Source: a virus (lineage: Duplodnaviria > Caudoviricetes). Taken from it: a DNA stretch of 45,208 nucleotides. This document shows, piece by piece, positions 3,483 to 38,259 of this stretch. The notes beneath the pieces were generated by a model. That model was not told the DNA's origin and did no database searches. It worked only from the letters and a program-made list of their open reading frames with translations. Numbering within the stretch: position 1 is the first letter of the stretch; each line of letters starts with the position of its first letter. The position numbers and the translations under genes were made by a program. The stretch covers positions 1 through 45,208 of IMG/VR virus record IMGVR_UViG_3300037515_000413; one strand, 5' to 3'.

Positions 3483-3779
3483 ATGCGCCGCCGCAGTCCC
3501 AAGCAAGCCAGGCTGTACGTCGAGAGACGCGCGTTCGTGAACGCGTTCCTGCGCGGCAAGGCTTGTGAAGCCATCGGAGTCGCGCCGGGGCAGTGCTTCG
3601 GGGAACTCACCGTAAACGAAGTGCTCAGGCGTTCAGCCGGTGGAGCGATAGTCCCTGGTCCGAAGGCCGACGCTCAACAGCAGGTTTTCCAGGCCCTGTG
3701 TGTCGGGCATCACTCGTACGTAACCGATCACCCGAAGTGGGCGCGAGAGAACGGTTTTCAAAAGGGAAGGTGGAAGTGA
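3483..3779 (+). CDS. Degenerate HNH/zinc-binding small protein
   Basis: CE...C...NE..RRSAGG...LCVGHH pattern; RBS GGGGGAG; TACAAT upstream. Confidence 0.6.
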   Translation: MRRRSPKQARLYVERRAFVNAFLRGKACEAIGVAPGQCFGELTVNEVLRRSAGGAIVPGPKADAQQQVFQALCVGHHSYVTDHPKWARENGFQKGRWK

Positions 3780-9264: not shown

Positions 9265-9479
9265 TGGCGGAGAGTCCAATACAAGTGTCCCTTGATGACT
9301 TCCCTGATGATGTTCGCGACGTTGATGCGGGGCATTGCCCTTTCTGCCAGTACGTGGCGTTGCTTGAACAGCAACCGCGCAGACGTACCTATCAGCAAGT
9401 TCTCGCTGACAGTTACGCGTTCTCTTTGTGCCACAGAACTTTCAATGAACAGGTAGTGGCTGATGGTCACCCAGACTAA
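9264..9479 (+). CDS. Hypothetical protein
   Basis: TGATG overlap with terL; RBS GGAGG. Confidence 0.55.
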   Translation: MAESPIQVSLDDFPDDVRDVDAGHCPFCQYVALLEQQPRRRTYQQVLADSYAFSLCHRTFNEQVVADGHPD

Positions 9480-9813
9480 CGGCGCATCCACATGGACAGC
9501 CGAGCGAAACGCGAGGCTGTACGGCGCGCTGAGCGGGCACCGCCTCAGTGGGGACGGCAGCACCTACGATTCCGGGATGCGTGGGTTCTGTGGCGCTGTC
9601 CACTGGAGCACGGTTCCCAACCTCACCACCGGCGACGGGATGCTGTGGGTGCTGGAGCGGATGCGGGAGCGCGGGTGGCTGTTCACCGTTGAGGCAGTAT
9701 GGAACGGCGGATATTCAGCGGACTTCCGAAGCTCGAAATTCTTTACGGGCCACACATACGCCGCCAACCTCCCGCTGGCCGTATGTCTAGCCGCAGAGAA
9801 GGCGCTCGCATGA
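9463..9813 (+). CDS. Phage ABA-sandwich-like protein
   Basis: PNLTTGDGM..VLERM..GW...LPLAVCLAA; paralog of 33144-33548. Confidence 0.65.
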   Translation: MVTQTNGASTWTAERNARLYGALSGHRLSGDGSTYDSGMRGFCGAVHWSTVPNLTTGDGMLWVLERMRERGWLFTVEAVWNGGYSADFRSSKFFTGHTYAANLPLAVCLAAEKALA

Positions 9814-19563: not shown

Positions 19564-21218
19564 CCGATATCTACTACCCGGTCGCAGGCGACACCCTGCC
19601 CATCTTCTTCTCCACCTATGACGGCGGTACGGGCGCGTCCATCACCATGACGGGGCTGGCCGTCACTGATGTCGAAATCTACAAAGATGGAGGCGTCACC
19701 CAGCGCGCCTCGGACTCCGGGTACACGTTGCTGGACACGGACGGCATCGACTTCGACAGCCTGACGGGCATCCACGGGTTCTCGATAGACCTGTCGGACG
19801 ATGATGACGCCGGGTTCTTTGAGGTTGGCCCGTGGTATCACGTCGTGGTCGCGTCCGTGACGATTGACGGCCAGACGGTGAACTTCATTCCAGCGGCGTT
19901 CCGCATCGTCTCAGCGACCCGCGGGCTGGCCGGGACCGCGCTGCCCAACGCCGCAGCCGACGCCGCGGGCGGGCTGGTGATCTCCGACGCTGGGGGCGTT
20001 GACGCGGACGCCCAGGCTGCGAGTGTGGCCGCCATAGAGGTTGACACCGGCACCACGCTTCAGGGCGAGGTTGACGGCATACAGGCGGACACGGAGGACA
20101 TCCAGGCGCGGCTCCCCGCTGCGCTCGTTGGAGGCCGGATTGACGCCACTGTGGACGCCACGGGCCTTGAGTCCGGGGCTGCCGGAGTGATTGCTGATGC
20201 AGTGTGGGACGAGGACGCCACGGGCCATCAGACTGGCGGGACGTTCGGGCAGGCCATCGGAGACCCCGGAGCCAACACGGAGACGATGTACGACGCGGTC
20301 ATAACGGACGCGGCTGGCACGAACGTCGCCGCGGACATCATCGCAATAGACGGGAATGTTGACCAGCTCCATGAGGCTGTCATTCTTCGCCGGGACACCG
20401 CTCAAGCGGGCGGGAACACCAGTATCACGCTGGATGCGGGTGCATCCGCCGTTGATGACTTCTACAAGGACAGCTTGGTCGTCATCGTAGACGGGACTGG
20501 AGCGGGCCAGAACCGGGTTGTCACGACATACAACGGCACAAGCAAGGTTGCAACCACACAGTCAATCTGGGGCACGAACCCGGATGCGACCAGTGTGTTT
20601 GTCCTGATAAGCGGCGGCGGCGTTACGGTCGAGGGATGGAGAGGCGGCGCACCAGCATCACTTCAGAGCTCCCGTGTGAACGCGTTTGTCGGTGCGATGG
20701 ATTCAAACACGATCACATCCAATGCCTTTGCCGCTGGATCAATAACGGCAAGCGCCATTGCCGCGGATGCGATAGGGGCATCCGAACTAGCGGCTGACGC
20801 CGTGGCTGAGATTGCGGACGCGGTGCTGGACGAAGCTCTCTCAGGCCACACGACAGCCGGGACGCTCGGCAAGGCTGTCGCGGATATTGAGACGGACGCT
20901 GCGGCCATCCTTGACGACACAGACGACATAGGTGTCGCGGGCGCGGGCCTGTCCGGCATCCCGTGGAACGCGGACTGGGACACGGAGGTTCAGAGCGAAG
21001 TGCAGGACGCGCTCGACGGCACCCTTGCCGACTCCGTGCCTGCGGACGGGACAAGGCCGTCGCTGGCGCAGGCGGTCTACATGGTCGTCCAGTTCCTCAC
21101 TGAGAGGGCTGTCAGCGGAACGGACGTGTCGGTAAAGAAGGTGGACGGCTCCACAGAACTGTTCGGGCTGGCCCTTGACGATGCGACAAGCCCAACGTCC
21201 ATCTCGCGGGATGCATAG
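19560..21218 (+). CDS. Long acidic fibre/spike-like virion protein
   Basis: 552 aa; internal repeat IADAVxDE..GH.T.GT.G.A; ITLDAGASAVDDFY..GTGAGQ.R module. Confidence 0.75.
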   Translation: MTDIYYPVAGDTLPIFFSTYDGGTGASITMTGLAVTDVEIYKDGGVTQRASDSGYTLLDTDGIDFDSLTGIHGFSIDLSDDDDAGFFEVGPWYHVVVASVTIDGQTVNFIPAAFRIVSATRGLAGTALPNAAADAAGGLVISDAGGVDADAQAASVAAIEVDTGTTLQGEVDGIQADTEDIQARLPAALVGGRIDATVDATGLESGAAGVIADAVWDEDATGHQTGGTFGQAIGDPGANTETMYDAVITDAAGTNVAADIIAIDGNVDQLHEAVILRRDTAQAGGNTSITLDAGASAVDDFYKDSLVVIVDGTGAGQNRVVTTYNGTSKVATTQSIWGTNPDATSVFVLISGGGVTVEGWRGGAPASLQSSRVNAFVGAMDSNTITSNAFAAGSITASAIAADAIGASELAADAVAEIADAVLDEALSGHTTAGTLGKAVADIETDAAAILDDTDDIGVAGAGLSGIPWNADWDTEVQSEVQDALDGTLADSVPADGTRPSLAQAVYMVVQFLTERAVSGTDVSVKKVDGSTELFGLALDDATSPTSISRDA

Positions 21219-21431
21219 ATGGCTAACGGAATCATCAGCCTTGGAATCGGCACCGGCACAGCGGACATCGGGCTGTTCATCACGCTCGGCCTCGAATCCT
21301 CAACCATCACGGACGCGCTGGCGATCATCCGCCTCCGCGGGCAGAGCGCGCCCATATCCCTGCTTGGGGCCAGTTCTCCCGTCGCGCTCCGCGGGCAGAG
21401 TTCTCCGATTCAACTCAGGGGGCGTGAGTAA
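21219..21431 (+). CDS. Small hypothetical structural protein
   Basis: Abuts both neighbours; repeated LRGQSxPI. Confidence 0.7.
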   Translation: MANGIISLGIGTGTADIGLFITLGLESSTITDALAIIRLRGQSAPISLLGASSPVALRGQSSPIQLRGRE

Positions 21432-21799
21432 TGCCGATTGAATCCCCCGTCACCAAAAGACACAGGTACGTGATTGGCGACGACCGGCCAATCCAGATTG
21501 ACGTCGTGGATAAGGACGGCGCAGCCAAGAACATGAACGGCTGGGCGCTGACATTCGAGATCAAGGCCACACGTACCTCCACAACCGCGCTCATATCGAA
21601 AACGACCGTGTCGGGGATCACGATTGGCGACGGGGCCGGGACTGACGACCGCGCCTCCATCACGATCTCGGACGCGGACGCCGAGGCCGCGCTTTCCGAA
21701 GGCGTCTACTGGTGCCAGTTGAGGCGGACGGACGCGGGCAGCGAAGAGCTACTTCAGTACGGGTCGTTTGAAGCCTTCAACCACGGGTACGGGACATGA
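21431..21799 (+). CDS. BppU-N-like Ig-fold structural protein
   Basis: GDD.PI.I.V.DKDG..G.Y.C.L pattern. Confidence 0.65.
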   Translation: MPIESPVTKRHRYVIGDDRPIQIDVVDKDGAAKNMNGWALTFEIKATRTSTTALISKTTVSGITIGDGAGTDDRASITISDADAEAALSEGVYWCQLRRTDAGSEELLQYGSFEAFNHGYGT

Positions 21800-22293
21800 G
21801 CTACGCAAATATCGCGGACGTGCAGGCAAGGGTCGGGGACATCGTGTCTTCACGGATATTCACGTCGTCAACCGTCCCGACAGCCGAAGAGGTCGAGAAC
21901 ATCCTTGACGGTGTCTCGGCTGAGTTCGACGCGGAACTCGCGGGCGCGGGATATGCAGTCCCTTTGGACGAGATCACCGACACGACGGCCCACGCGTGGG
22001 CCAGGAGGGCGCAGGCCGCGTTTGCATCGGCCTACGTCCTCAACCTGTTCCCGGGCGCGGCGCTTGACCCCAACGATGACTCGCCAATTTCCAACAGGAG
22101 GTCGGGACTGTTCGCGGAGGGCAAGCGGTTTCTGGAGGCCGTGCAGAAGCAGAGGCTCGCCGCCACGCGGACCACTTCGAGATTGGGACGGATGAAGGTT
22201 GGTTCAGCCACGGACTCGAACGGCCTGACCAAGAAACCGACCTTCACGAGAGGAATGTTCGACTACCCCGGAAGCGTGAGCAGGGTGGAATGA
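21796..22293 (+). CDS. Head-tail adaptor
   Basis: MSYANIADVQAR N-terminus typical of gp6/gp36-like adaptors. Confidence 0.75.
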   Translation: MSYANIADVQARVGDIVSSRIFTSSTVPTAEEVENILDGVSAEFDAELAGAGYAVPLDEITDTTAHAWARRAQAAFASAYVLNLFPGAALDPNDDSPISNRRSGLFAEGKRFLEAVQKQRLAATRTTSRLGRMKVGSATDSNGLTKKPTFTRGMFDYPGSVSRVE

Positions 22294-22745
22294 CAGAGGC
22301 AACCATAAAGGCGGGTGTCGCTGCGGTCGTTGCAAAGCTGGCCGGATACACGTCTGGCACCAACGTCACGGAGGACGACTACAGAGTTCTCGCGAACGGG
22401 TCGGACAAGTACGCCATCGTGACATCAGGAGACGGGTCTAGCTCGGAAGTCCTGACGCTGGGAACGTCGCGAACGGTGATGAACAGGTGGGCTATCGAGT
22501 TGCAGGTGCTAGTCCCGCTCAGGGCGCAGGCGCATGGGGACGCTGAAGCCGACGTGATCGCTGAGACGGACGCCGTTCTGGCCGAGCTTCACAAATGGCC
22601 GGAACTCGACGGGGTTTCGGGAGTGGTGGAGGTACAGGTTGGAAACCCGTTGAGTCTGATTGATACGGCGCAGCAGCGTGAATTCGTAGGCCGGATGATT
22701 CCCCTCATGGTGCAGGAAGTCATCGCGGTAGCCCTAAGCGAGTAA
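22290..22745 (+). CDS. Putative tail terminator/completion protein
   Basis: Synteny and size. Confidence 0.6.
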   Translation: MTEATIKAGVAAVVAKLAGYTSGTNVTEDDYRVLANGSDKYAIVTSGDGSSSEVLTLGTSRTVMNRWAIELQVLVPLRAQAHGDAEADVIAETDAVLAELHKWPELDGVSGVVEVQVGNPLSLIDTAQQREFVGRMIPLMVQEVIAVALSE

Positions 22746-22749
22746 CGCC

Positions 22750-23241
22750 ATGATGGGACGGATGGAATGGACTGGGACACGTTCGCTCGCGCGGAACCTC
22801 CGTGCGCGCCGGACGATCATCCAGGGTGCGCTCAACCGGACTCTCAGGGCTGTTGGACGGGTGGTTACTCCCGCGTTGAAGGGCAACACGCCAAGGATGA
22901 CCACGAAGCTCGCCAACTCGACACGTTTTCAACTGGTGGGAGGGCCACAGGCGCAACAGTTGGAAATCCGTCAGGGCGCGAAAACCCCGAAGGGAGCCTT
23001 CTACGGAAGGTTTGTAAGGGAAGGGACACGCGCACATGACATCGTGCCCATCCCACCCAACAAGGCACTGAGGTTCGTTGTTGGGGGTCAGACGGTGTTC
23101 CGTAAGCGGGTCCACCACCCTGGCACGAAGCCGAACGCATATCACGTCAGGACTCTTAATCAGACAAGGGGAGCGGTGCAGGCGATAGCCGACCGGGAAG
23201 GCGCGAACGTGGCGGCTGAGTTCGCGAGGGGTAAAGACTGA
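22750..23241 (+). CDS. HK97 gp10-like neck/tail component
   Basis: TP..T.KLANS, YGRFVREGTRAH.I.P..KALRF..V.HPGTKPN. Confidence 0.8.
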   Translation: MMGRMEWTGTRSLARNLRARRTIIQGALNRTLRAVGRVVTPALKGNTPRMTTKLANSTRFQLVGGPQAQQLEIRQGAKTPKGAFYGRFVREGTRAHDIVPIPPNKALRFVVGGQTVFRKRVHHPGTKPNAYHVRTLNQTRGAVQAIADREGANVAAEFARGKD

Positions 23242-23960
23242 TGGTCGCGCACTCGAAACTTACAAGGGTCTACCTGGACGAGCACGACATCTCCGGTGTT
23301 CTAACGGGCTTTGACCACTCTCCCGAACACCAGTTGGTTGAAGCCACGGTGTTCACAGACACGGCGCGTAAACATTCACGTGGGCTTGGCGAAGAGACGT
23401 GGAGCCTGGAGTCGCTGTTTGACAGCGGAGACGACGGCGACGCCGCGATAGTCGCTTTGAGGTCAGGGTCGGGGTTGATGACGCTCTGGCCGGGTGGAGA
23501 TGCGATAGAGAAGGTGGGGGTGTCGGGCTCGGCCGTTCAGGCTTCCAACTACTCCGGTGGCGTGAGGGTCGGGGAACTTGTGGCGTTTAGAGCGCAGGGC
23601 CAGTGGGAGCAGGTCACGGACAGGCTTGTCTCACTTGGGACAGAGAGCACGGTCACGTCCACAACCGCGGGGACTTCGATTGACGACGGCGGGGCATCGG
23701 CTGACGGCGGGGTCTTCGTCGTGCATGTCCTGGCGTTCTCAGCCACGGGAGGGAACGCGCAGTGGGTCATAGACCTTGAAGAGTCCGATGACGACGGTGC
23801 ATTGGACGATTTCGCGGCCGTGGACTCCATCACCTTCTCCGCAGTTGGAGCCGAGAGGTCAACGTTCGCAGGGGCATTTGAGCAGTACGTCCGGGTGAAA
23901 GCCACGCTGGACGCCTCATCAGGGTCGATCACCTACCAGGCGGGCTACGTCAGGAACTAG
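23241..23960 (+). CDS. Tail tube-like protein 1 with an extra C-terminal domain
   Basis: N-terminal half paralogous to 23971-24396. Confidence 0.7.
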   Translation: MVAHSKLTRVYLDEHDISGVLTGFDHSPEHQLVEATVFTDTARKHSRGLGEETWSLESLFDSGDDGDAAIVALRSGSGLMTLWPGGDAIEKVGVSGSAVQASNYSGGVRVGELVAFRAQGQWEQVTDRLVSLGTESTVTSTTAGTSIDDGGASADGGVFVVHVLAFSATGGNAQWVIDLEESDDDGALDDFAAVDSITFSAVGAERSTFAGAFEQYVRVKATLDASSGSITYQAGYVRN

Positions 23961-23970
23961 GAGCTAAGAC

Positions 23971-24396
23971 ATGGTCGTCCACTCAAAAGATTCCACCTTC
24001 ACGCTGACGGACGTGGGCACAACCGAAAGGATTGTCGCGCGGGTAACCGCGATAGACGGCCTTCCGGGTGAGGCCGAGCTTATCGAAGACACGCCCATCG
24101 CACAGGCGTACCGGACTCACACGAGGGGTCTGGAGTCGGGCGAGTTCACGGTAGAGGGCTTGTGGGACGACACGGCCAACACCGGCCCTGACGTTGTGCT
24201 GGGAGGGCTGAGGACGACGGACACAGCCTCGACCTATGAGTTCGGCCCGGAAGGGTCTGAATCCAGCGATGTCCGGTACACCGGGACGGCCAAGCTCCGC
24301 AACTACTCGATTGGGGTGAGAGTGGGGGAGATGGTGTCATGGAGAGCCACGTTCGTGAAACAGTCCGCGGTCACAAGGGACACGTTCGGTGCATAG
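23971..24396 (+). CDS. Major tail tube protein
   Basis: FTVEGLWDD, YEFGPEG..YTG..VGEMVSW; strong RBS AGGAG. Confidence 0.8.
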   Translation: MVVHSKDSTFTLTDVGTTERIVARVTAIDGLPGEAELIEDTPIAQAYRTHTRGLESGEFTVEGLWDDTANTGPDVVLGGLRTTDTASTYEFGPEGSESSDVRYTGTAKLRNYSIGVRVGEMVSWRATFVKQSAVTRDTFGA

Positions 24397-24877
24397 AGAG
24401 CGGATAGGCGACTGCACGCGGATTACCTGGGACGACGGCACATGGTGGGAGGTCTACAACGACCTGCCCTACGGAGTGAGCCGCGCGGTCGCGGTCGAGG
24501 CCGCGAAGCTCGGCTCGGTCTCGTTGCAGGACGGCGAGCCTGCCATGGCGTTCTCAAAGGACATCTCAGTCGAGAAGTTCGTGGCGGCCGAGACGCGCAT
24601 CTTGGAAATCAGACTCTTGGGGTGTACCAGGGCGTGGAGCTTCGAGGGTGAGGTGAGCGTTGACCGCATCAACGCCATCAGGCCCGACACGAAGGTCCGG
24701 GAGGTGGTGCAGGTCTTGAACGGGCTTCACAGACCTGTGGAGCGGAGCGAAGAGCTAAAAAACGGCTTGAGCTCGCCCTCTACCTCAGGAGCGGCGGGCA
24801 GTCAGACGGTGACGCAGAAATCCCCGGAGAGTTCCGGGGAGTCTACGACTACCGCGGGTGGGTCAAGTCCGGACTGA
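24389..24877 (+). CDS. Tail assembly chaperone (gpG-like)
   Basis: Between the tube and tape-measure genes; contains slippery A AAA AAC. Confidence 0.8.
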   Translation: MHRERIGDCTRITWDDGTWWEVYNDLPYGVSRAVAVEAAKLGSVSLQDGEPAMAFSKDISVEKFVAAETRILEIRLLGCTRAWSFEGEVSVDRINAIRPDTKVREVVQVLNGLHRPVERSEELKNGLSSPSTSGAAGSQTVTQKSPESSGESTTTAGGSSPD

Positions 24878-24993
24878 TGAGTCCCTACTCACCCGAGGAA
24901 TTCGCCCGTAAGCCCGCTTGGTGGGTGAACGACCTTGCGATGGTTGAGAGCTACATCAACAAGGTGCAGGAAGCCAGAGAGCAACTGAAGTGA
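24757..24993 (+). other. -1 programmed frameshift site and gpGT-like extension
   Basis: A AAA AAC at 24757-24763 in register; the -1 frame is open to TGA 24991-24993, overlapping the TMP start. Confidence 0.85.
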
Positions 24994-26072
24994 CCAGCCA
25001 GCACGACACGGTATTGAGGTTCATTGCAGAGGACGAAGCCTCTGAGGACATGGGGCGCCTCCAGGAGCGCACTGAAGGTCTTCAGCGCGGGTTCGCGGGC
25101 CTCAACCGCGGGATGCTGGCGCTTGGACTGGGGACCATTTCAACCGGCGTGGCCTTCCGGTTTGTGCTCACCCGTTCTGAGGAATTAAGGCAGTCCATGG
25201 TGAACATGGGCGTCCTCATGGAGACCCTGCCGGTCAACATCACGCAGGCGTTCGATGAGTTGAAGGCCAGCGGCGCGTTCGCTGCACTCGCGGATGAGAT
25301 TGGGGTTACGGAACGCGAAGTCGAAGAGATGTTCCTGAACATCGCCCGTCATTCCCTTGGGGTCAAGCCGTCCATAGACGACGTAGCAGGGGCGTTCGGG
25401 ATAGTCAAGTCTGGCGCGTCCGATGCAGGCGGGGCCGCGGAACTCATGGGCGGCAAGCTCCGTGGCCTTCATCAGCCCCTCATGGAACTGGGCGGCGGCA
25501 TGAGGGACGCTGAGTCGGTAACGCGGGAGTTCGCCAGGGCGGCCCGCGAGTCCACAGACGACTGGGACCGGGCAAAGAAGACGTTCACGGAGGTTGGAGA
25601 CTGGTTCGCGGGCGTGGGCAGAGAGGCGATCATTGACTTTGCCCGATGGTTCGACGCGGATGTCTGGAGGGAACGCTTCGGCCAGATTACAGACGGACTG
25701 AAAACGCTCAGCGATGACTTTATGGACAGGCTGGGGCGCATCGGCGATTGGTTCAAATCTCTTCCCGGCATTGTCTTGAACGCGCTCAGGTCAGTACGCG
25801 GTTGGATTGACCAGTACCTGATCTCACCGCTGAGCGATGCCTGGGACTTGCTACAGAGGTTCAATCCATTTGGAGGGAACGTCTCTGCGCCATCAGGGTC
25901 GTTTGGTACTTCGACAGCCGCGCCCCAGCCGGTGAGCATGGGTATGGGATCGAGCGTGGTTGTGAACGTCTACAACCCGGTGGTAGACAACGAGGTCCGG
26001 GTGGCTGAGACGGCGCGCCAGATTACCAGGCAGGTGCGTGAGAACCTGCGCGGCGGCGGGAGTCTGGCGTGA
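24990..26072 (+). CDS. Tape measure protein (short, 360 aa)
   Basis: Position after the chaperone; LRFIAEDEAS N-terminus; helical with spaced W/F; VVVNVY C-terminus. Confidence 0.8.
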   Translation: MTSQHDTVLRFIAEDEASEDMGRLQERTEGLQRGFAGLNRGMLALGLGTISTGVAFRFVLTRSEELRQSMVNMGVLMETLPVNITQAFDELKASGAFAALADEIGVTEREVEEMFLNIARHSLGVKPSIDDVAGAFGIVKSGASDAGGAAELMGGKLRGLHQPLMELGGGMRDAESVTREFARAARESTDDWDRAKKTFTEVGDWFAGVGREAIIDFARWFDADVWRERFGQITDGLKTLSDDFMDRLGRIGDWFKSLPGIVLNALRSVRGWIDQYLISPLSDAWDLLQRFNPFGGNVSAPSGSFGTSTAAPQPVSMGMGSSVVVNVYNPVVDNEVRVAETARQITRQVRENLRGGGSLA

Positions 26073-26074
26073 GA

Positions 26075-26635
26075 CTACAGACAGCCGCCGGCCTTCAATT
26101 GCCGGTGCATCTCGGCGGCCTTCTCCGTGGCTTCCTCCGCGACTGGCAGATAGGCAGAGCCGTTTGGCCCGTGCGCCTTCTCCCACAGGCCGGGGAGCGC
26201 ATCGCCATACGCAATGAACATTTTCAGCAGCGCATCGCAGGTTGCGGATACCTGGGACGGCTCTTGTGTTGGCGCACACGCCAGTTCCGTCCAGCGGTCA
26301 TCGGCATATTTGAGCGTTGCACGCCGCTGCTGAATGAAGTCTTCACTAAGTCCATATTCAGAAATGAAAGTTGGGTCGAGACTCCGCGTGAGCGAAAGAC
26401 GCTGCTCATGCAAGGATGGAATCTCACCAGGGCCGCCGCATTCGGTATAGGCCGCGATCTGCTCTCTGACGCCGAACCAGTCGTCAAACTCCGTCTCTGC
26501 GGCCGGCGGTTCTCCGGGCGCTGTCAGGGCCACGACAACAATGAGCGCCACGGACAGCGCCGCGACGCCTATCAGAATCCGCTTCCACATAACGCGCGCA
26601 GCGTACGCGCTCATGGAGCCCTCCGCAATGTCCAT
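26075..26635 (-). CDS. Antisense moron: membrane-anchored/secreted protein
   Basis: KRILIGVAALSVALIVVVAL hydrophobic N-terminus; 4 Cys; start 26635 or 26614. Confidence 0.7.
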   Translation of the reverse strand: MDIAEGSMSAYAARVMWKRILIGVAALSVALIVVVALTAPGEPPAAETEFDDWFGVREQIAAYTECGGPGEIPSLHEQRLSLTRSLDPTFISEYGLSEDFIQQRRATLKYADDRWTELACAPTQEPSQVSATCDALLKMFIAYGDALPGLWEKAHGPNGSAYLPVAEEATEKAAEMHRQLKAGGCL

Positions 26636-26649
26636 GGAGCCTACGCGTA

Positions 26650-29100
26650 ATGGCTCAACCCCACTTTGTATTCGAGGCCGACTGGGATCGCGACGGGGCG
26701 TACTCGGACTTCACGTCAGACGTGGTGCAGTTCAACATGGGCCGCGGCAAGGAAGAGGCGAAGGAAGAGGCGCGCGCCGGGTTCATGGACATGGTGCTGA
26801 ACAACTCTGACCACAAGTACACCCCGACGAAATCAACGTCCGTGCTCTTCCCGTTCGTCAGGCCGGGGGTGCCGTTCAGGAGCTTCATGGTCTACCCCTA
26901 CGACGCGCTGGACGATCTCGCATCAGGCACATTGGACGGCCGCGCGGTGCCGAACGATAGCAACTTCGGATCATGGAGCGACCCGTCGGAGAGTTTCGTT
27001 GGCGACGGGGCAGGCGCGGTTGAGAACACTGACACAGGACTGGCGCGCCGCGCGACTGTGGACTTTGGGGAAACCGATTGCTGGGTGGGGGTGAAGGTTA
27101 AGCGCGTCGCCAGTGGAGACGCTGGGCTGATGCTCAGACGTGTGGATAGCACGACGTTTGTACTGTTCACCGAGAGCGCGGGGACGCTCACCTTCTGGCT
27201 TGCGCCCGGCGACAGTTCAACCTACGGGCTCCGTACACAGGAACTTGACGACATGCACAGCCCCCCGTCCGTGGGGGACTACTACCTGCTGTCAGTCTGG
27301 ATGTCCGGCCCGAAGTTTCACGTGTACGTGAACAACGAGCTTGTGATGCCCAACATGTCTCTCGACTTCCACACGCCGGGCTATGACGCGGCGTTGCTCA
27401 CGTCAACCATTCATGGGCTGGGGACGCTTGGCACAAGTGCTGATAACCGCTGGTCGGAGTTCGGCGGATGGAAGCCGGCCTTCGAGGGCCGGATAGACCA
27501 CGTGGAGCCACGGCCGGGGACGCGCACAAACTATGTCTACATGAAAGCCTATGACGACCTGGAGCGGGCTAAAAAGCATCAGGTGTTCCGGCTGACAGCC
27601 CCACTCTTCGATACTCAGGACATTGTTGCGGAAATTCTCGATGCGATGGGGGTTACACACGGCAAGGGCGGGTTGGACGAAAACGGCCAGCCAGAGGAAA
27701 TGCTGGGCTTCGGCGTAGACCTGACCATCGAAACCGAAAAGGTGATGTCGCGCGATGGGTTCACCGAGTTACAGCAGGTCGCGGATGACGACGTGGGGTT
27801 CGTCTACGTGGATGGCGCCGGAAGCTACCGCTATGAGGACTCAACACACCGTGAGGGCGCGCCTCACGACGCGCCACGCGCCACGTGGGAGAGCGAATGG
27901 TCTAATCCTCGTTCAGAAGACGACAAGACCTTCACGGAACCCCTGACGTGGGACGACGGAAAGGACCTGGTGGAGAACGAAATCTACTACCAGTATTACA
28001 AGATATCCGTCGCAACCAATCAGGAGGTGTGGAGGCTCCCGGAACACCTGGACTCGGTAGCCAACAACCCTGAGTTCACGCACGAGGATGAGCCCACGGT
28101 CTCCTGGACGGACGTGATGAAGTTCCTTGCCGTTGGGGACGGCGACCAGCTCGCCAACCCCAGGATTCCCGAACCCGGCACGGACTTCACGGTGAATAGC
28201 CAGCAGGACGGCGGTGGCGTTGACCTGACGGCCTCGCAAGCCTCGGAAACAGGGACGGTCTCAGCCACGGGCTCTCCGGACTTTGAACTTGACGACACCG
28301 GCCAGGACTTCACCGGCGGCCCAACCCTCGACGGTGTGAGTTGGGCTCTTCGGGCTCAGACCATCTTCATCAAGGACGCGTCGGGGAACAGAGCTTGCGC
28401 GTTCATCAAGCTGACCGACCCTGATGGGGATGGAACGCGAATTGAACTGCTGGACGCGCCGCAAGCCCTCAGCGGCGCAGCGGGTTATCTGGCCGCTGAA
28501 ACTGACTTTGACGAAACAGACACTCCCCTGACGTACGACGTCTATCCCTTCGTCGCGTGGTTCACGGACGGCCTGGACGGGAACTTCAAGGAGATCAACG
28601 TACAGGGGGCTTCACCCTGGACTGACGGGCAGGGGAACGGCGACGGCGCGTTCCTTGATTTGCTCAGGCTGATGGCTGACAGGGGGACGAACTCGGACAA
28701 GGTGGCTGCGCGCGCAGAATCGTCCATCTCACAGAACGCCAACGGACGCCGGAGAGTCCAGCACGAAGCCCTACACATAGACAGGTGGGAGACGGCGCTA
28801 GGCAGGGCAAAGGCACGGCTCTACCAGCGGGCTACAGCGCGCGAACGCCTTGGGATCACCATGATCGGCGGTTCAAAAGGGAACCTGATGGAGATCGTCC
28901 ACAGGGAGTTGTCGGACCGCGTGGCGGTGAACTTCGCGGACATGGGGCTTGACGACCGGGAGTATTACATTGACCGCTATCAGATATCGGCAGACCTTCA
29001 CTCTGGGGGGCAGCCGTTGGCGGCGAAGTTCGGGCTGACAGGCGCGTGGCTCAACCCCGGGTGGGGAGAAATAGCATGGGGAGAGTTCGTCTGGAGCTAA
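26650..29100 (+). CDS. Tail tip/hub protein
   Basis: 816 aa; LNNSDHKYTP, FEGRIDHV, G.VYVDGAG.Y.Y and ELSDRV.V motifs; follows the TMP. Confidence 0.8.
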   Translation: MAQPHFVFEADWDRDGAYSDFTSDVVQFNMGRGKEEAKEEARAGFMDMVLNNSDHKYTPTKSTSVLFPFVRPGVPFRSFMVYPYDALDDLASGTLDGRAVPNDSNFGSWSDPSESFVGDGAGAVENTDTGLARRATVDFGETDCWVGVKVKRVASGDAGLMLRRVDSTTFVLFTESAGTLTFWLAPGDSSTYGLRTQELDDMHSPPSVGDYYLLSVWMSGPKFHVYVNNELVMPNMSLDFHTPGYDAALLTSTIHGLGTLGTSADNRWSEFGGWKPAFEGRIDHVEPRPGTRTNYVYMKAYDDLERAKKHQVFRLTAPLFDTQDIVAEILDAMGVTHGKGGLDENGQPEEMLGFGVDLTIETEKVMSRDGFTELQQVADDDVGFVYVDGAGSYRYEDSTHREGAPHDAPRATWESEWSNPRSEDDKTFTEPLTWDDGKDLVENEIYYQYYKISVATNQEVWRLPEHLDSVANNPEFTHEDEPTVSWTDVMKFLAVGDGDQLANPRIPEPGTDFTVNSQQDGGGVDLTASQASETGTVSATGSPDFELDDTGQDFTGGPTLDGVSWALRAQTIFIKDASGNRACAFIKLTDPDGDGTRIELLDAPQALSGAAGYLAAETDFDETDTPLTYDVYPFVAWFTDGLDGNFKEINVQGASPWTDGQGNGDGAFLDLLRLMADRGTNSDKVAARAESSISQNANGRRRVQHEALHIDRWETALGRAKARLYQRATARERLGITMIGGSKGNLMEIVHRELSDRVAVNFADMGLDDREYYIDRYQISADLHSGGQPLAAKFGLTGAWLNPGWGEIAWGEFVWS

Positions 29101-29103
29101 AGC

Positions 29104-29424
29104 ATGGCTAACTCAGCGGACGTTGTCAGCGGCCAGACCGCATCACACACGCAGTACAACAACCTGCGCGCTGATGCGATTAACACATCGTCGGGCCACA
29201 AGCACGACGGCACGAATGGCCGGACGCTGTATGTCGAGGTGGACGAAACCAACGTGTCGGCCACCCCAACGGACGCGGAGTTGGACGCTGCGTTCGGGGC
29301 TCCTGCAACGGTGGGCGCCGGGTTCCTTTGCTTGCTGGACGACGCGGGCGGGGATGCGGCTGTCTACCTGGTCGGGACGAACGGGACATCGTGGTGGTAT
29401 GTGGCATTGACGAAGGCGGCGTGA
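29104..29424 (+). CDS. Minor tail protein
   Basis: YNNLRAD..GHKHDG motif typical of tail fibre N-termini. Confidence 0.75.
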   Translation: MANSADVVSGQTASHTQYNNLRADAINTSSGHKHDGTNGRTLYVEVDETNVSATPTDAELDAAFGAPATVGAGFLCLLDDAGGDAAVYLVGTNGTSWWYVALTKAA

Positions 29425-29591
29425 TGAAAGACGTTATCGCTGCGCTTGAAGCCCTGGCAAAGCAGGCGGGCAACAGGAGCCTGATCGAGGCCGGCCGCGC
29501 TCAAGGCATTCGCGATGCCATCGTGCTGTTGCGGAATGAGAATGTAGAGGCCGCCCCGGCCACGGTTGACCGCGACGAAAGCAAAGGCTGA
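29424..29591 (+). CDS. Small hypothetical protein
   Basis: TGATG overlap. Confidence 0.6.
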   Translation: MKDVIAALEALAKQAGNRSLIEAGRAQGIRDAIVLLRNENVEAAPATVDRDESKG

Positions 29592-29633
29592 ACAGGGTAC
29601 AATGAACGTGCAGAAATCGTGAGAGGATAAGCC

Positions 29634-29918
29634 ATGACTGAGGAGTCTCCGCAGGAAATAGAAGAGACAGCGGTTGTAGAGGCCAGCGAGACGCCGCGTG
29701 TCAGGCGCAAAAAGGAACCGGCACCGCCGATGACCGTTGGAGAGTTAAAGGACCAGGTGGTCAGCTACGGCGAACGTGTCGGGACGGCATTCGTCGGATG
29801 GCTCTCGAGGCTGGCGGGCGAGAATACGGAGAAAGTCAAGAACGTAGCCAACCGTATCGTCAGCGATCTTGAAGGCGAGGGCGAAGAAGATGGGGACAGC
29901 CGGGAGAAGAAGCCATGA
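29634..29918 (+). CDS. Hypothetical protein, first gene of the membrane cluster
   Basis: RBS GAGGA; TACAAT at 29598-29603. Confidence 0.75.
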   Translation: MTEESPQEIEETAVVEASETPRVRRKKEPAPPMTVGELKDQVVSYGERVGTAFVGWLSRLAGENTEKVKNVANRIVSDLEGEGEEDGDSREKKP

Positions 29919-30109
29919 TTTGGTTTCTCGCATTCCTCGGCGGAGCGATCATCGGGTATGGCTTGGCCCTTGAGTCACCACCTAATGAAATGATGTTCCT
30001 CGGCCTTGCTCTTGCGGCACCGGGATGGTGGATGACGGTGAAGCGGGAGGTGAGGAAACTCTTTGGTTGGGACAAGCCGACCTTTCCAACGACCTTGGAG
30101 AAGGAATAA
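29915..30109 (+). CDS. Small two-TM protein (holin-like topology)
   Basis: Two hydrophobic segments and a charged C-terminus; ATGA overlap. Confidence 0.7.
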   Translation: MIWFLAFLGGAIIGYGLALESPPNEMMFLGLALAAPGWWMTVKREVRKLFGWDKPTFPTTLEKE

Positions 30110-30384
30110 TGGGCTGGCTGCTTAGTGTCACGCTCGCTGCTGGCGCAGTGGGATATGGCGCTGTCTGGGTGTTCAATACCGTCACCGGCTTCTTCTCCAT
30201 CTTTTCCAGCGTGAACGATACAGCCCAGAACGCAGCGCGTGGCGGTGTGTTCGTCAGCAGTTCGTCAGCCATGATGGCAAAGTCGTGGCTGAACAAGTTC
30301 GCGAAGGGTACGGCACGGTTTCAGCGGCCCGCTGCCGCTATCCAAAACAAGTGGGAATCGCTCGCGAAGGGTGAGCGAAAGTAA
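30109..30384 (+). CDS. Single-TM protein with an amphipathic basic tail
   Basis: TAATG overlap; MGWLLSVTLAAGAVGYGAVWVF. Confidence 0.7.
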   Translation: MGWLLSVTLAAGAVGYGAVWVFNTVTGFFSIFSSVNDTAQNAARGGVFVSSSSAMMAKSWLNKFAKGTARFQRPAAAIQNKWESLAKGERK

Positions 30385-30405
30385 AGAAAGCGCAGGATCG
30401 AACAC

Positions 30406-30498
30406 ATGGACATCATGCTGATCGTTGCGGCTGTCGCCATTGGCGTCGCCCTGTTGATGGCAGTCGGGTTGGTGAAGGCCAAGTTCGGCAATAAGTAA
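30406..30498 (+). CDS. 30-aa single-TM microprotein
   Basis: MDIMLIVAAVAIGVALLMAVGLVKAKFGNK; RBS AGGA; translated by hand. Confidence 0.6.
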   Translation: MDIMLIVAAVAIGVALLMAVGLVKAKFGNK

Positions 30499-30514
30499 GA
30501 GCACCAACTAAACT

Positions 30515-31276
30515 GTGAACGAATCCGTCTGGGACATTCTCCGCCGCTTATGGCAGCAGGTATGGGACCGTGTGAAGTGGCGGGTTGTGTGGACGGGGTT
30601 CGCTTTCGGGGTTGGAACCTTCGCCACGTGGTGGTACCGGGAGGCAGTGTTCGACCTGCTGCTCGTCCCGTCAGGGGGGAATCTTTCTCCCTTTGACGGG
30701 AAGCCCGTCTATACCGAGCTCACGGGCATGATGGGAGCCTCTATCCGGCTGGCACTCATGGGCGGGAGGTTCGCGGCAGTGCCGGTGGCTACCATCGGTA
30801 TTATCACCCTGTTCCAACCCTTGCTGCCCCGGCAGTTACGCCGGTTCATCACCATTTTCCTGCCCGCGACCGCCCTGCTTTTCGCTGCCGGCGTGGCATT
30901 TGCCTTCTTCGTGATGCTGCCCGCAGGACTGAATTTCCTGCTCCACTTCGGCGACGGGACCGCAGTCCCGCTAATCACCATCACGTCATACATGGGGTTG
31001 CTCACAGGGATAATGTTCTCGATGGGTGTGGTGTTTGAGTTGCCGCTTGCCATGTTCCTGCTCGCGAAGATGAGGATTGTCTCGCACAGGCAGCTCGCCA
31101 ATTTGAAGGTGCAATTCCTGTTCATGCCGGTGGCGGCGTTCACCCTGGGGGCGATACTGACGCCGGGGATGGACCCCGTCAACGCGATCTTTATCGCGGT
31201 GCCATTCATCGTCCTTTATGAGGTCGGCCTGTTCCTGGCCTGGCTCGCCAGGCCGCAAACTGGAGGCGACGGATGA
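30515..31276 (+). CDS. tatC: Divergent twin-arginine translocase subunit TatC
   Basis: 253 aa, six hydrophobic helices; LF.AG.AFAFFVMLP..LNFL, I.I.SY, GVVFELP, ILTPGMDP and P..VLYEVG. Confidence 0.92.
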   Translation: MNESVWDILRRLWQQVWDRVKWRVVWTGFAFGVGTFATWWYREAVFDLLLVPSGGNLSPFDGKPVYTELTGMMGASIRLALMGGRFAAVPVATIGIITLFQPLLPRQLRRFITIFLPATALLFAAGVAFAFFVMLPAGLNFLLHFGDGTAVPLITITSYMGLLTGIMFSMGVVFELPLAMFLLAKMRIVSHRQLANLKVQFLFMPVAAFTLGAILTPGMDPVNAIFIAVPFIVLYEVGLFLAWLARPQTGGDG

Positions 31277-31491
31277 TTATGCGCTATGGCATCGATGCCA
31301 CTTTCGTTCTCGGCATGATACTGACTGTCAGCGGCACCCTGGTAGTCGGTTTTAAAAGCCACTGGAAATTGTTTCAACCGGCTCCCCCGGACGCCAACGC
31401 TGGCATGATGCTCACCGTGGCAGGCGCAGTACTCGTATGCATCGCGTATGTGATGGCTGAGTACGTATCGTGGAGGTGGGACAGGCGATGA
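31273..31491 (+). CDS. Small two-TM protein
   Basis: ATGA overlap with tatC; RBS GGAGG. Confidence 0.75.
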   Translation: MIMRYGIDATFVLGMILTVSGTLVVGFKSHWKLFQPAPPDANAGMMLTVAGAVLVCIAYVMAEYVSWRWDRR

Positions 31492-31589
31492 TCTCACGCC
31501 TCATCCGCGCCATCGCTGCGGCGTGGTACATCTACCGCGATGCGAAGCGGCACCCGTGGCCGCGCCACATTGGAGACGGGAGCAAGTGA
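31488..31589 (+). CDS. 33-aa hypothetical peptide
   Basis: MISRLIRAIAAAWYIYRDAKRHPW..; ATGA and GTGA overlaps; RBS GGAGG. Confidence 0.5.
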   Translation: MISRLIRAIAAAWYIYRDAKRHPWPRHIGDGSK

Positions 31590-31798
31590 CAGAGTCCGTG
31601 ACAACGCCTCGCAAATCTGAACTCGCCCTGAGAATGACATCCGCCGTGACAAAGCAGCGGCAGGTTGACGCCTACATGAACGCTCTCAGCATGGCCCGCT
31701 GGGGCAGGCCGGTGAAGCGCATGGTGCATCCCGGCTTCCGGCAGTGCCCATTTCGCGGCGATAAGGACTGGTGCTGGTGCAAGGGGACGGGTACATGA
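31586..31798 (+). CDS. Hypothetical protein
   Basis: GTGA overlap; CWCKGTG end. Confidence 0.55.
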   Translation: MTESVTTPRKSELALRMTSAVTKQRQVDAYMNALSMARWGRPVKRMVHPGFRQCPFRGDKDWCWCKGTGT

Positions 31799-32052
31799 CT
31801 ACTGAGACGATTCCGTACGTGTCATCGGCCACGGAGCCAGCGTACCCGTGCTGCGGCTGCACGGTAGTCAGGGCGCACACGCATGAGGTTGTGCGCAGGC
31901 CGCTCTACGTCACGGCCTCTCACTGCCAGCGCTGCGGCGGTACGGCGTGCCGGGACCACTACAACACCTGCGGTCTCTGCGAGGGGTGCTGCATCAGGGA
32001 GCACGGGATGATGAAACACCTGCCGGAGCACCTGCGGAACAACCGGGCGTGA
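31795..32052 (+). CDS. Cys-rich zinc-finger protein
   Basis: Multiple CxxC/CxxH; ATGA overlap. Confidence 0.65.
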   Translation: MTTETIPYVSSATEPAYPCCGCTVVRAHTHEVVRRPLYVTASHCQRCGGTACRDHYNTCGLCEGCCIREHGMMKHLPEHLRNNRA

Positions 32053-32193
32053 GGCTGCTATGATGCCCGCGGCCCCGGCCACGTTGAGAGCGCCGCCCTC
32101 GCGGCGGCGGGCCGGGGCTGTGCTATGCTTGGCGGCGGTCTAGCGTCCGGCAGCTAACCGGGCGGCCCTGCCAGGAGCTTCCGCTCCAACGTT

Positions 32194-35669: not shown

Positions 35670-35875
35670 GGCACATCCTCACGCGGCGCGCCGGGTTGCA
35701 CTGCGCCGCTCTCACGCTGCGCCTTCATGGCGACCAGGTAGAAAAGCAAGTCGGCAGCCTCCTCTATCGCCTGGTCAAGCGGGTCGCCAACGAACTCCGG
35801 CCCGTAGGCGCGGCCCACCTCCTGCCGCGCGTCCAGCAGGGTGCGCACCTTCGTCCAAAGCTCTTCGTTGTTCAT
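35666..35875 (-). CDS. Small MazG-like (all-alpha NTP-PPase-like) protein
   Basis: AIEEAADLLFYL. Confidence 0.55.
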   Translation of the reverse strand: MNNEELWTKVRTLLDARQEVGRAYGPEFVGDPLDQAIEEAADLLFYLVAMKAQRESGAVQPGAPREDVP

Positions 35876-36414
35876 AGCCCCACCAATCCGGGTTGCGTGG
35901 CGCGCAGCCGCTTTTCGCTCATGGCGACGTACTCAGGCGAGAGTTCGATGCCCACGTAGCTGCGGCCCAGCTCCATGCACGCGACGCCGGTGCTAGCCGC
36001 GCCGCTGAATGGATCCAAAATGGTCGCCGGGACGGGCTCGGCGCCGTGGGCGCACGTGGCACGCCAGCCGAGGGTGTGTGAAACGCTTCCGCCCATGCAC
36101 CCCGCTGAACCGTACAGTTCGGGGTGCATGTTGTAGGGGCCGCCAACACCACGTCCTTTCCGATCGGCGTAGTTGCCCCCGTTCGTTTCAACGATGCGCG
36201 CCCACTGGCTGCCGCACACCGGGCAGACGCCGCGCTCGCTGGTGCTGGCGCGGACCATCGGCTTCACCAGCGAGACGGGGTAAGTCGCGAAGTGACTTTC
36301 GGAAAACGCCTGAGTTCCAACTTCCCAAACGCTCCGTATATCGTCGTTCGGGACAGGCTCGAAGTATCCCGCCAAATCGGGCGGCACTTCGGACGCGCGC
36401 ATTACGATTTGCAT
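35872..36414 (-). CDS. DNA methyltransferase, C-terminal (SAM-binding) half
   Basis: RSVW, HFATYP, ILDPFSGAASTG and GIELSPEY; own RBS GGAG and ATG. Confidence 0.88.
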   Translation of the reverse strand: MQIVMRASEVPPDLAGYFEPVPNDDIRSVWEVGTQAFSESHFATYPVSLVKPMVRASTSERGVCPVCGSQWARIVETNGGNYADRKGRGVGGPYNMHPELYGSAGCMGGSVSHTLGWRATCAHGAEPVPATILDPFSGAASTGVACMELGRSYVGIELSPEYVAMSEKRLRATQPGLVGL

Positions 36415-36448: not shown

Positions 36449-37090
36449 ATGGGCGTTCCGAAGGGTCTGTTTGCTGGCGAAAAGAATCCCGCATGGCGCG
36501 GTGGTCACAGGGGATATCGCGGCCCCAATTGGAAATCTCAGAGGCTCTTGGCACTGCATCGCGACGGGCATAAATGCCTTGCGTGCGGTTCGGTCAAGCA
36601 GCTTACAGTCAATCACATCATCCCGTTCCGTCTTTTCGCCTCTCACGTTGAAGCTAACGATCTGGCGAACCTCGCGACGTTGTGCCGCCCATGTCACAGC
36701 ACAACCGATAACGATTTCTGGCGGCGCAACCCTCTTTTCTTTGCCGTGCCACGATGGCCGGATTGCCGCCTGATTCGCAAATGCCGCCGGTGCAGCAAAC
36801 CGTTCCAAGCCCTCCCGCACAACTTCATCTGTACCCCATGCGTAACGTTTGAGTGTGCCCGGTGTGGAGAGAGATTCATTCGACGCCGGCTCCGTGCAGA
36901 GAAATACTGTTCGCGGGATTGCCGAAACAGCGCGGTGCGTTCCCTTGCGAGAATGTGCCCGCTCTGCGGAGGGCGGAAACGTCAGTCTGCGGTTCGCTGT
37001 CATGCTTGTTACCTCAAAGACCCCGCCGCCGAAGTTCGTCCAGGACGTAGGCCCGGTCGGAAGGCGAAAGATCGCTCCGCAGCCGCATGA
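36449..37090 (+). CDS. HNH homing endonuclease with zinc ribbons, antisense to the operon
   Basis: NPAWRGG, RDGHKCLACG..L.VNHI.P...NDLANLATLCRPCH, CxxC and YCSRDC. Confidence 0.9.
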   Translation: MGVPKGLFAGEKNPAWRGGHRGYRGPNWKSQRLLALHRDGHKCLACGSVKQLTVNHIIPFRLFASHVEANDLANLATLCRPCHSTTDNDFWRRNPLFFAVPRWPDCRLIRKCRRCSKPFQALPHNFICTPCVTFECARCGERFIRRRLRAEKYCSRDCRNSAVRSLARMCPLCGGRKRQSAVRCHACYLKDPAAEVRPGRRPGRKAKDRSAAA

Positions 37091-38024
37091 GCGGTTCGGG
37101 CACTTGCCACACGCTGCGCAGGTTGCGGGTGCCGCCGTCGCCGCCTGTTACCGTGGCATGGCCGCGGGAGCCGTTGACGCCGATGCCCGCCATATTCCCG
37201 CTAACTGACGACCACTCTCGCCGCCCGAACTCCGCACTCTCCGCCACCGCCTCCCGGTCCGCGTAGTACCCCATCGCCTTCACGAACATAAACACGTACT
37301 CATGCGAGTCCGTGGTGCGCCAGCTACCGCGCCGGAGCACCAGGCCATCGTTGGGCGCGCAGCGCGGGCAGCCGGGGCAGTCGGCCCAGCCTGCTAGTGT
37401 TTGTTTGCCACGGTTTTCACTGTGGTTGCTTTCATGGTCGGCAATGTGGTCGAGATAACGGCCTGAACGCATCCCGCCAACGGTGGCCGGAGACACGCGC
37501 TCCCCTGTCTTCACCCGGCACCGCTCCCACCGCGTGCCGTTCAGGCTCTCCGGCATGACAGCCCCGACCCACGGCCCGAAGCTGCCGCCCTTGGCCCAGA
37601 TGATCGTGTCCCGCAGTACCCACCCATCGGCCTGCATCGCCAGTGCGAACCTGTGCGGCACGAGTAGCTGGTTCCCGGCGGTGTAGCCCGGTGGCATGTG
37701 CCAGTCAATGCGATTAGGTGTGGCGTTTTGTGGGCCAGCCAGTTTGGAGGATGGAGGACCGCCAGACGCCGGATTGCTCGCATAGCTGTCCCCGTAGTTG
37801 ACCCAGAGAACACCGTCGTCACGCAGCACCCGCCGTAGCTCCCTGAACACGCTCACCATGTTCTCCACGTGCGCCTCAACCGACTCTTCAAGGCCAAGCT
37901 GTCCCGCCGTGCCGTAGTCCCTGACGCCGAAGTACGGCGGGCTGGTGACGGCCGCGTGGACGCTCTGCGGCTCCATGCTCCGCAGCACCTCCCTGGCGTC
38001 TCCCTGCTCCACGCGCCACGTCAC
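37014..38024 (-). CDS. DNA methyltransferase (N4C-type, SPPY), N-terminal catalytic half
   Basis: GDA, VTSPPYFG.RDY, RVLRDDG, IIWAK, MPES, HEYVF and RNLRSVW; lacks motif I; GTGA start. Confidence 0.9.
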   Translation of the reverse strand: MTWRVEQGDAREVLRSMEPQSVHAAVTSPPYFGVRDYGTAGQLGLEESVEAHVENMVSVFRELRRVLRDDGVLWVNYGDSYASNPASGGPPSSKLAGPQNATPNRIDWHMPPGYTAGNQLLVPHRFALAMQADGWVLRDTIIWAKGGSFGPWVGAVMPESLNGTRWERCRVKTGERVSPATVGGMRSGRYLDHIADHESNHSENRGKQTLAGWADCPGCPRCAPNDGLVLRRGSWRTTDSHEYVFMFVKAMGYYADREAVAESAEFGRREWSSVSGNMAGIGVNGSRGHATVTGGDGGTRNLRSVWQVPEPLMRLRSDLSPSDRAYVLDELRRRGL

Positions 38025-38124
38025 GCTAGCTGCCCCCTGTGGCCCTCTGCGCCCATGCGCGGCGCTCGCGTGGCGTGCGGGCCGTCGCGCCCCGCCGCGG
38101 GGGCTGTGGCGGCCACCAGCGCCC

Positions 38125-38259
38125 TCACGCCGCCCTCCATGCCGTGCAGCGGCAGCCGCGGACCATGCAGCCTTGCTCGCTCCACTGCCCGCTGGCCGCG
38201 CGGTGCGAGCCGCGACGGTGCTGGCAGTTCGCGCATGGGGAGTCAAAGTACGTGGTCAT
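38125..38259 (-). CDS. Small Cys/His-rich peptide
   Basis: CANC.H...H..C....C.C; ATGA overlap; translated by hand. Confidence 0.55.
   Translation of the reverse strand: MTTYFDSPCANCQHRRGSHRAASGQWSEQGCMVRGCRCTAWRAA

Follow-up and report, generated by a model that had tools for sequence, protein, structure and literature searches.

We analysed a 45,208-nucleotide stretch of viral DNA, the whole of which is called the window here (IMG/VR virus record IMGVR_UViG_3300037515_000413, positions 1 to 45,208). The window encodes a tailed phage with a terminase, a Mu-like portal and protease, a major capsid protein, tail proteins and an integrase (Pfam, PHROGs), and directly after its last tail genes lies a cassette of three small genes, designated X, Y and Z, and a gene for a TatC protein, designated TatC*. 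From sequence comparisons, we lean slightly towards the view that X-Y-Z-TatC* is an endolysin-free lysis or egress module for hosts that are likely to be without peptidoglycan. Lysis or egress appears to be the best supported of three options raised by a first-pass annotation of this DNA, the others being export and sabotage of Tat. We put at about even the chance that Dehalococcoidia phages have turned the host Tat core into an endolysin-free membrane-tearing machine, in which a TatC without its signal site serves as scaffold for three dedicated partners.

TatC* and its conserved partners

The 253-amino-acid (aa) open reading frame (ORF) encodes a member of the TatC family with a full-length profile match and six transmembrane (TM) segments, as had been annotated. 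It matched PF00902 (E=1.8e-37, profile 6-208/208), and its AlphaFold2 model, with a predicted local distance difference test score (pLDDT) of 79, matched only TatC structures at E<0.001 (seven matches); the TM-score against E. coli TatC 9e01 was 0.73. PHROG phrog_36238, whose function is not annotated, also matched (E=3.7e-17); its members may be genes of cellular flanks. What the annotation overlooked is that this six-TM protein is no intact TatC: the twin-arginine signal site is lost.

Motifs in L015, the closest cellular TatC, which was aligned to solved TatCs, served to place the residue columns, and 97 rows of the TatC* clade were compared with 78 cellular rows, the truncated L067 being left out. 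Residue numbers, including those of the N-terminal H12/E15 motif, follow E. coli TatC. H12 was kept in 2/97 clade rows versus 78/78 cellular rows, and E15 in 0/97 versus 76/78, its charge being reversed to R or K in 92/97. F94 survived in four of the 97 clade rows (77/78 cellular) and E103 also in four (73/78), and G98 was lost as well. F94 and E103 are described as key twin-arginine residues in a Tat review (PMC13673990). The window copy has L at F94, L at E103, V at H12 and R at E15. The former signal site is consistently basic, not randomised (window charge +5.1 versus +1.0). By contrast, clade and cellular TatCs alike keep the turn between TM5 and TM6 (in the clade, T208 in 95/96, P209 and D211 in 96/96 each, Q215 in 82/96) as well as E170 (79/97 in the clade), P85 and P172. 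T208 and Q215 bind a polar residue of TatA/B, according to part of PMC10197872. The window copy retains T208, P209 and D211 and has A at Q215. The loss of F94, E103, H12 and E15 together with the retention of T208 and D211 therefore points to a protein that has given up cargo recognition but still has the turn at which partners dock: of the two features of a canonical Tat receptor, the twin-arginine site is missing from window and clade alike, and the TM5/6 polar cluster of T208/Q215 with D211 is present in the clade. Since the signal site is lost, ordinary Tat export or complementation of tatC by TatC* appears unlikely. A cationic, Trp-rich C-terminal tail of at least 30 aa, with a median charge of +10, was found in 76/87 complete clade members versus 0/77 cellular TatCs; it is absent from the window copy.

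In a quick tree (rows more than 88% alike and short rows removed, no bootstrap), 52 cassette-type TatCs fell on one side of a branch from 46 cellular ones, with a Shimodaira-Hasegawa-like approximate likelihood ratio of 100, a stem length of 0.77 and deep internal divergence. After clustering at 50% identity, 142 of the 150 top-ranking representatives could be aligned, and 28 of these had a degenerate site, 88 a canonical one and 26 an ambiguous one. The closest protein to the window TatC (73% identity) lies on a 46.7-kb contig, and a Y homologue (66%) was found on a contig of equal length. An alignment-based scan found 12 IMG/VR contigs at 40-57% identity, to which a tail-protein scan added two (14 in total); when viral contigs were scanned with a single sequence, be it the window TatC or the 816-aa tail protein, there were no matches, so that alignment queries were needed. 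In metagenomes, 503/601 matched stretches encoded a relative (half of the collection scanned). Five weak INPHARED matches appear to be cellular flank genes, and the clade has a single GTDB copy (L014, CAXBME010000052.1), which carries the full cassette on a phage-like contig in a Planctomycetaceae-titled bin, where it is likely mis-binned.

The partner genes were conserved upstream of TatC*. Among the best 80 metagenome stretches, many of them near-duplicates and labelled viral by clade and cassette, the loci with enough upstream DNA carried X in 48/48 cases (0/74 in cellular loci), Y in 63/63 (0/79) and Z in 71/73 (1/79). Leave-window-out hidden Markov models (HMMs) built from 11-12 viral loci and run on 1224 frames recovered window X (E=4.5e-6), Y (E=1.7e-10) and Z (E=0.024), each as top match. 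The median pairwise ratio of nonsynonymous to synonymous substitution (dN/dS) was 0.29 for TatC*, from 428 non-independent pairs that did not include the window copy; the medians for X, Y and Z were 0.42, 0.41 and 0.60. The relatives thus show conserved synteny, fixed partners and purifying selection, and the possibility raised at first pass of a recent, decaying host capture was not borne out.

X has no TM segment and no hydrophobic signal region, and its N-terminal half has a mean charge of -7.8; its best ESM Atlas match (0.79) was below the acceptance bar. Y has a holin-like layout by hydropathy and charge, and neither Y nor the two-TM genes matched a Pfam or PHROG holin family. The model of Y comprises two long helices at a pLDDT of 61; a fold search with this low-confidence model gave no match, and the best ESM Atlas match, to conjugation-protein clusters (0.89), was again below the bar. 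Z occupies the position of tatB in hosts, and all of its 68 members (68/68) bear an E or D near the N-terminus. Its TM segment is three residues longer than that of host TatB, the Gly hinge following 16 residues on in 53/63 versus 13 in 24/24 host TatBs, and its amphipathic helix is very short. Pfam TatA/B (PF02416) matched neither the window copy nor eight members, NCBIfam TatA/B none of 68, the hhalign probability against TatA/B was 5-9%, and 3/68 reached E values of 4e-4 to 2e-3 against a host TatA/B HMM. Z would accordingly seem TatA/B-like in layout only, its homology not being significant. In one relative (L008, ~8941-9763), two unrelated genes lie between Y and Z, and X-Y is separated from Z-TatC by ~850 bp.

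At 67 distinct Z-TatC junctions, the TatC start codon was ATG at 38, TTG at 10 and GTG at 7, while 12 had no such codon, and a Shine-Dalgarno (SD)-like motif preceded it in nine; Z started with ATG and an SD in 51/68 (crude tests). These start signals suggest that little TatC* and much Z may be made. TatC* frames without ATG, GTG or TTG occur in L007, L008, L117, L124, L137, L153, L167, L170, L172 and L184, most with an ATC a few bases after the Z stop, a possible case of non-canonical initiation.

Search for lysis genes at the cassette site, and the probable host

The first-pass annotation had recognised no endolysin or spanin, and our searches agree. No endolysin, holin or spanin family was found among 88 window ORFs (Pfam, PHROGs) or further window ORFs (Pfam), and no lysis family in 188 ORF translations of at least 95 aa from five related genomes, four of them complete (Pfam). 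Six-frame searches for SLT, Amidase_2, Phage_lysozyme, Amidase_3 and M23 detected the positive controls and gave 0/20 phage records for each; 16 of these records were at least 90% complete. A cryptic endolysin-holin pair, which the annotation had named as a possibility, was likewise missing from the profile searches; part of the ORFs were also folded.

In the window and in related viral loci, the cassette is the last late-strand module after the tail genes. The window phage has a Mu-like head and tail tube (Pfam/PHROGs), and other carriers differ in their virion modules: other capsid families occur in G001/G003/G005 and G004, and several carriers are podovirus-like with large internal proteins. 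The cassette thus seems to be common to unlike virions, as would be expected for a host-specific function. Sugar-modification blocks lie among the structural genes of two relatives, with NeuB, an epimerase and methyltransferases in G002 (L097:3269-8957) and with heptose-type SIS/cytidylyltransferase, dehydrogenase E1 and radical SAM genes in G003 (L106:15530-L107:3824), both of possible use in virion glycosylation.

Among 80 loci with the shared tail protein, three showed TatC, and most had too little downstream DNA. Seven near-complete tail relatives, picked from the TatC-less loci, had no TatC genome-wide. Of four siphovirus-type tail relatives, one was a known carrier and the other three had at most 3.5 kb downstream, L281 ending in the next tail gene. 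At the same site, TatC-less relatives carry different membrane proteins that are nearly mutually exclusive with the TatC cassette. A 50-59-aa two-TM family was present in 9/19 TatC-less stretches (six were seeds) versus 1/111 TatC-bearing stretches (partial), and a membrane-anchored 300-490-aa family in 12/19 (eight seeds) versus 0/111; X, Y and TatC were found in 0/19 TatC-less stretches. Besides whole genomes, only 32 loci of the 111 stretches had 1.5 kb on both sides, and alternative-cassette family H2 was dropped from the counts (one seed non-homologous). One amphipathic family occurs with both membrane-protein sets. One two-TM member matched holin PF05106 (E=2.8e-4, 21.7 bits; cut-off 23.8). 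The data also mark endolysin absence as a property of this phage group, in which TatC is one of several solutions.

This second endolysin-free module follows the tail-fibre genes in the TatC-less relatives L216, L222, L232, L236, L239, L245, L248, L251, L254 and L266. It comprises the weakly holin-like two-TM protein, the membrane-anchored protein, which has a Trp/Arg-rich N-terminus and whose matches in Pfam and PHROGs all stayed below cut-off, if any, and a third, amphipathic protein of 60-75 aa that also occurs beside some TatC cassettes.

Two prophages provided a natural control, of one case each. In G018, a member of the presumed host class that bears peptidoglycan and has four transglycosylase genes, a prophage with window-like capsid and portal (G018:C27, ~20500-24000; L275:10540-13941) carries a 706-aa SLT protein after its tail genes, and then four small genes, three with TM segments. 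In G124, a genome without a transglycosylase match, the prophage has only 33-, 92- and 44-aa peptides at the lysis position.

A Dehalococcoidia host, guessed at first pass, is likely from sequence evidence, and such a host would likely be without peptidoglycan. Titles of Dehalococcoidia or SAR202 were borne by 29/32 top GTDB matches, and for each of the 97 clade rows the cellular sequence matched best was one of four Dehalococcoidia loci. One of 401 Dehalococcoidia genomes, G124, has a prophage inserted in a 1.36-Mb contig that shares its tail protein and capsid family with several carriers; the prophage spans G124:C4 ~784000-817000 (L272-L273) and has an integrase. A transglycosylase of penicillin-binding proteins was found in none of five of the nearest genomes (0/5; completeness not given). 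Most Dehalococcoidia orders have lost peptidoglycan genes, according to parts of PMC10284905, with which parts of PMC11994032 agree. Nesting of the viral clade inside Dehalococcoidia TatCs, considered as further support for the host, was unsupported: in an approximately unbiased (AU) test, a tree in which the Dehalococcoidia TatCs form a clade that excludes the viral ones could not be rejected (p=0.696). We call the host likely and no more because of this result and because Y was found in 0/401 Dehalococcoidia genomes, among which there was also no cassette-bearing prophage.

Layout of the cassette and the record

The cluster and its small membrane proteins lie where the first-pass annotation had placed them, and TM predictions match the proteins that it listed (Table 1). 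Its list of members had omitted X, which has no TM segment and belongs to the core, and had counted both two-TM genes, which are present but accessory. The first of these is accessory because contigs from two other runs (X3, X4) join 29878 straight to 30109, skipping it; in most relatives X abuts Y. A homologue search with the second returned only itself. Similar-sized peptides follow TatC* in 29/72 loci, and homology of the window 33-aa peptide to these, or to peptides of TatC-less phages, was not established.

Table 1. Features of the cassette region in the window
Feature	Position	Strand	Remarks
TACAAT, -10-like box	29598..29603	+	42-bp gap before cassette; no -35 box
Gene X, 94-aa soluble protein	29634..29918	+	Acidic N-terminal half, C-terminal amphipathic helices; core member
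64-aa protein, two hydrophobic segments	29915..30109	+	Between X and Y; accessory, skipped in other contigs
Gene Y, 91 aa	30109..30384	+	N-terminal TM, weakly hydrophobic second segment, basic amphipathic tail; core member
Gene Z, 30-aa single-TM peptide	30406..30498	+	At tatB position; core member; TatA/B-like layout only
TatC*, 253 aa	30515..31276	+	Six-TM TatC fold (profile and predicted fold); GTG start without SD
72-aa two-TM protein	31273..31491	+	Translationally coupled to TatC*; accessory, no homologue found
33-aa basic amphipathic peptide	31488..31589	+	Similar-sized peptides follow TatC* in 29/72 loci

The TACAAT box noted at first pass is present, one of two occurrences on the + strand of the window, and a promoter scan of the window did not call it. 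A -10-like hexamer precedes X in 11/46 distinct loci, some within the upstream gene, and in many relatives X is coupled to the late gene that precedes it. With such a hexamer in only 11/46 loci, TACAAT was rejected as a general cassette promoter.

The genome had been annotated as closed. A 175-bp repeat is indeed common to both window ends (one mismatch), but the record is listed as linear in IMG/VR, with a completeness of 59% according to CheckV. A chimeric assembly, the other doubt raised, was not seen: a single 14.6-kb unitig, from a run that is possibly the source sample, covers 24000-32111 with no differences. No tRNA was found in the window, and no RNA data set was found to hold it.

Elsewhere in the window, a tape-measure-like gene of only 360 aa (24990-26072) indicates a short tail, and in the region of 23241-24396 and 24990-26072 there is a pair of consecutive genes that each match a major-tail-protein PHROG. 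An ORF on the - strand (26075-26635), inserted between the tape-measure gene and a tail gene, has an N-terminal hydrophobic segment and several cysteines; it is moron-like and had no Pfam match. Four DNA methyltransferase genes are present (3593-4972, 5959-6834, 35872-36414 and 37014-38246), one of them an MT-A70 fused to a ParB-like domain.

Proposed mechanism, alternatives and known systems

In the lysis or egress mechanism that we propose, TatC* would no longer wait for cargo and would act as a membrane scaffold. Z would be made in excess, its starts being strong and those of TatC* weak, and would attach to TM5/6 through its N-terminal E/D. Late in infection the TatC*-Z assembly, joined by Y with its holin-like layout and perhaps by host TatA, would make the single membrane thinner until it breaks. 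The acidic X might bind the now-basic cytoplasmic face as trigger or brake, which is speculation. Passages of PMC13673990 describe TatA assemblies as weakening membranes and docking at TatC TM5/6, and parts of PMC10092561 report that one substitution uncouples Tat assembly from substrate, even with F94 and E103 removed.

Several points weigh against this mechanism. E. coli with constitutively assembled Tat grows, TatB F13Y reaching 94% on sodium dodecyl sulphate (parts of PMC10092561); assembly alone is therefore not lytic, and lysis would call for a further contribution, for example from Y or the cationic tail. That tail is absent from the window copy, which also has Q215A, Z is not significantly TatA/B-like, and its longer TM segment should weaken membranes less. 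TatC-less relatives are also without endolysin, so the absence of endolysin reflects the host group and by itself gives no link between TatC* and lysis, and the PF05106 match of the exchanged protein is below cut-off. A novel wall or S-layer enzyme is possible among unfolded, unannotated ORFs, and no S-layer-breaching factor was identified. The AU test and the absence of Y and of cassette-bearing prophages from the 401 genomes count here too.

A signal site that is consistently basic, beside an X with an acidic half, would also suit a private translocase or insertase retuned to non-twin-arginine phage cargo, with Z as TatA/B partner. It might insert Y, or export acidic X or an S-layer-acting factor, and egress could still follow, by transport. 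D211, proposed to drive insertase movement in passages of PMC13673990, is invariant and E170 is mostly kept. However, the called window genes contain no twin-arginine motif, no folded enzyme accompanies the cassette, X has no signal region, and the amphipathic helix of Z is very short; we regard such a translocase as unlikely. A lost cargo site with a kept docking site is, in turn, how a poison subunit would be expected to look, and TatC* might join host TatC oligomers or titrate TatA/B as a dominant-negative saboteur, blocking export of a receptor or of respiratory complexes for superinfection exclusion or takeover. Mixed complexes with a site-less TatC have been proposed for haloarchaeal TatCt (passages of PMC13673990), and the window has an integrase and a -10-like box before X. 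This reading, which we hold to be quite unlikely, is weakened because a tyrosine integrase occurs in 0/12 TatC-bearing relatives (the search covering tyrosine integrases, not serine ones) and the box in few loci; coupling of X to a late gene and weak TatC* start signals suit a poison poorly, and X, Y and the exchange with another membrane set are left unexplained.

A role in virion assembly or DNA entry, as membrane anchor for morphogenesis or packaged entry channel, would fit a cassette in the late operon beside tail-fibre genes and the podovirus-like carriers with large internal proteins. We consider it very unlikely, since the cassette occurs with head and tail modules of different kinds and is missing from relatives that share the tail protein, and a six-TM protein in a tailed virion would, to our knowledge, be unusual. 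Largely refuted, and so highly improbable, are the readings of TatC* as an auxiliary gene that boosts Tat export in the host, as a passenger in decay or as an artefact of assembly. The clear cellular origin of TatC and the linear, incomplete record speak for these, whereas key signal-binding residues are lost clade-wide, the stem is long, internal divergence is deep and dN/dS is low, the fixed partners are absent from cellular loci, and the unitig is contiguous.

Our literature search, which covered sources other than subscription papers and supplementary gene tables of viromes, found no description of a phage TatC or of tailed-phage exit from bacteria without peptidoglycan, and those passages of a 2026 Tat review that contain phage or virus terms include none on viral TatC. 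Even under the rival explanations, a virus-encoded, re-engineered Tat core is absent from the literature searched. If the lysis or egress reading is true, phages would have a way out of the cell that forms a class of its own, and the cassette would be a Tat system uncoupled from substrate in nature. SAR202 and other Dehalococcoidia are widespread in oceans and subsurface, and the cassette offers a concrete, testable egress candidate for their phages. For the Tat field, about 28 clusters at 50% identity that have dropped cargo recognition and kept T208 and D211 amount to a natural experiment, in which the disputed membrane-weakening step is separated from substrate binding.

The cassette resembles holin-endolysin(-spanin) cassettes in genomic position, in its cluster of small membrane proteins, in the layout of Y and in its exchange with a weakly PF05106-like protein. 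It differs in that no adjacent muralytic enzyme, endolysin or spanin and no holin family match was found, and in that it is built around a subunit of the host translocase, so that it does not count as a holin-endolysin cassette. TatC* shares with canonical bacterial TatC (PF00902), of which the nearest Dehalococcoidia/SAR202 members are 36-41% identical over the core, the six-TM fold, P85, E170, P172, T208, P209 and D211, and a single-TM small gene directly upstream. Unlike these, it is viral, has lost H12, E15, F94, G98 and E103 at a site turned basic, has X and Y as fixed partners and is accompanied by no full TatA or TatB, and most of its clade has the cationic Trp-rich tail. It is thus a TatC by family that fails as a twin-arginine receptor. 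According to passages of PMC13673990, Chloroflexota with two TatCs all keep the twin-arginine site, and the 14-TM haloarchaeal TatCt, which lacks F94 and E103, is likewise a TatC retained without that site. TatCt is, however, cellular, consists of two fused TatCs and has a functional TatC as its partner, whereas TatC* is a single viral copy with novel partners.

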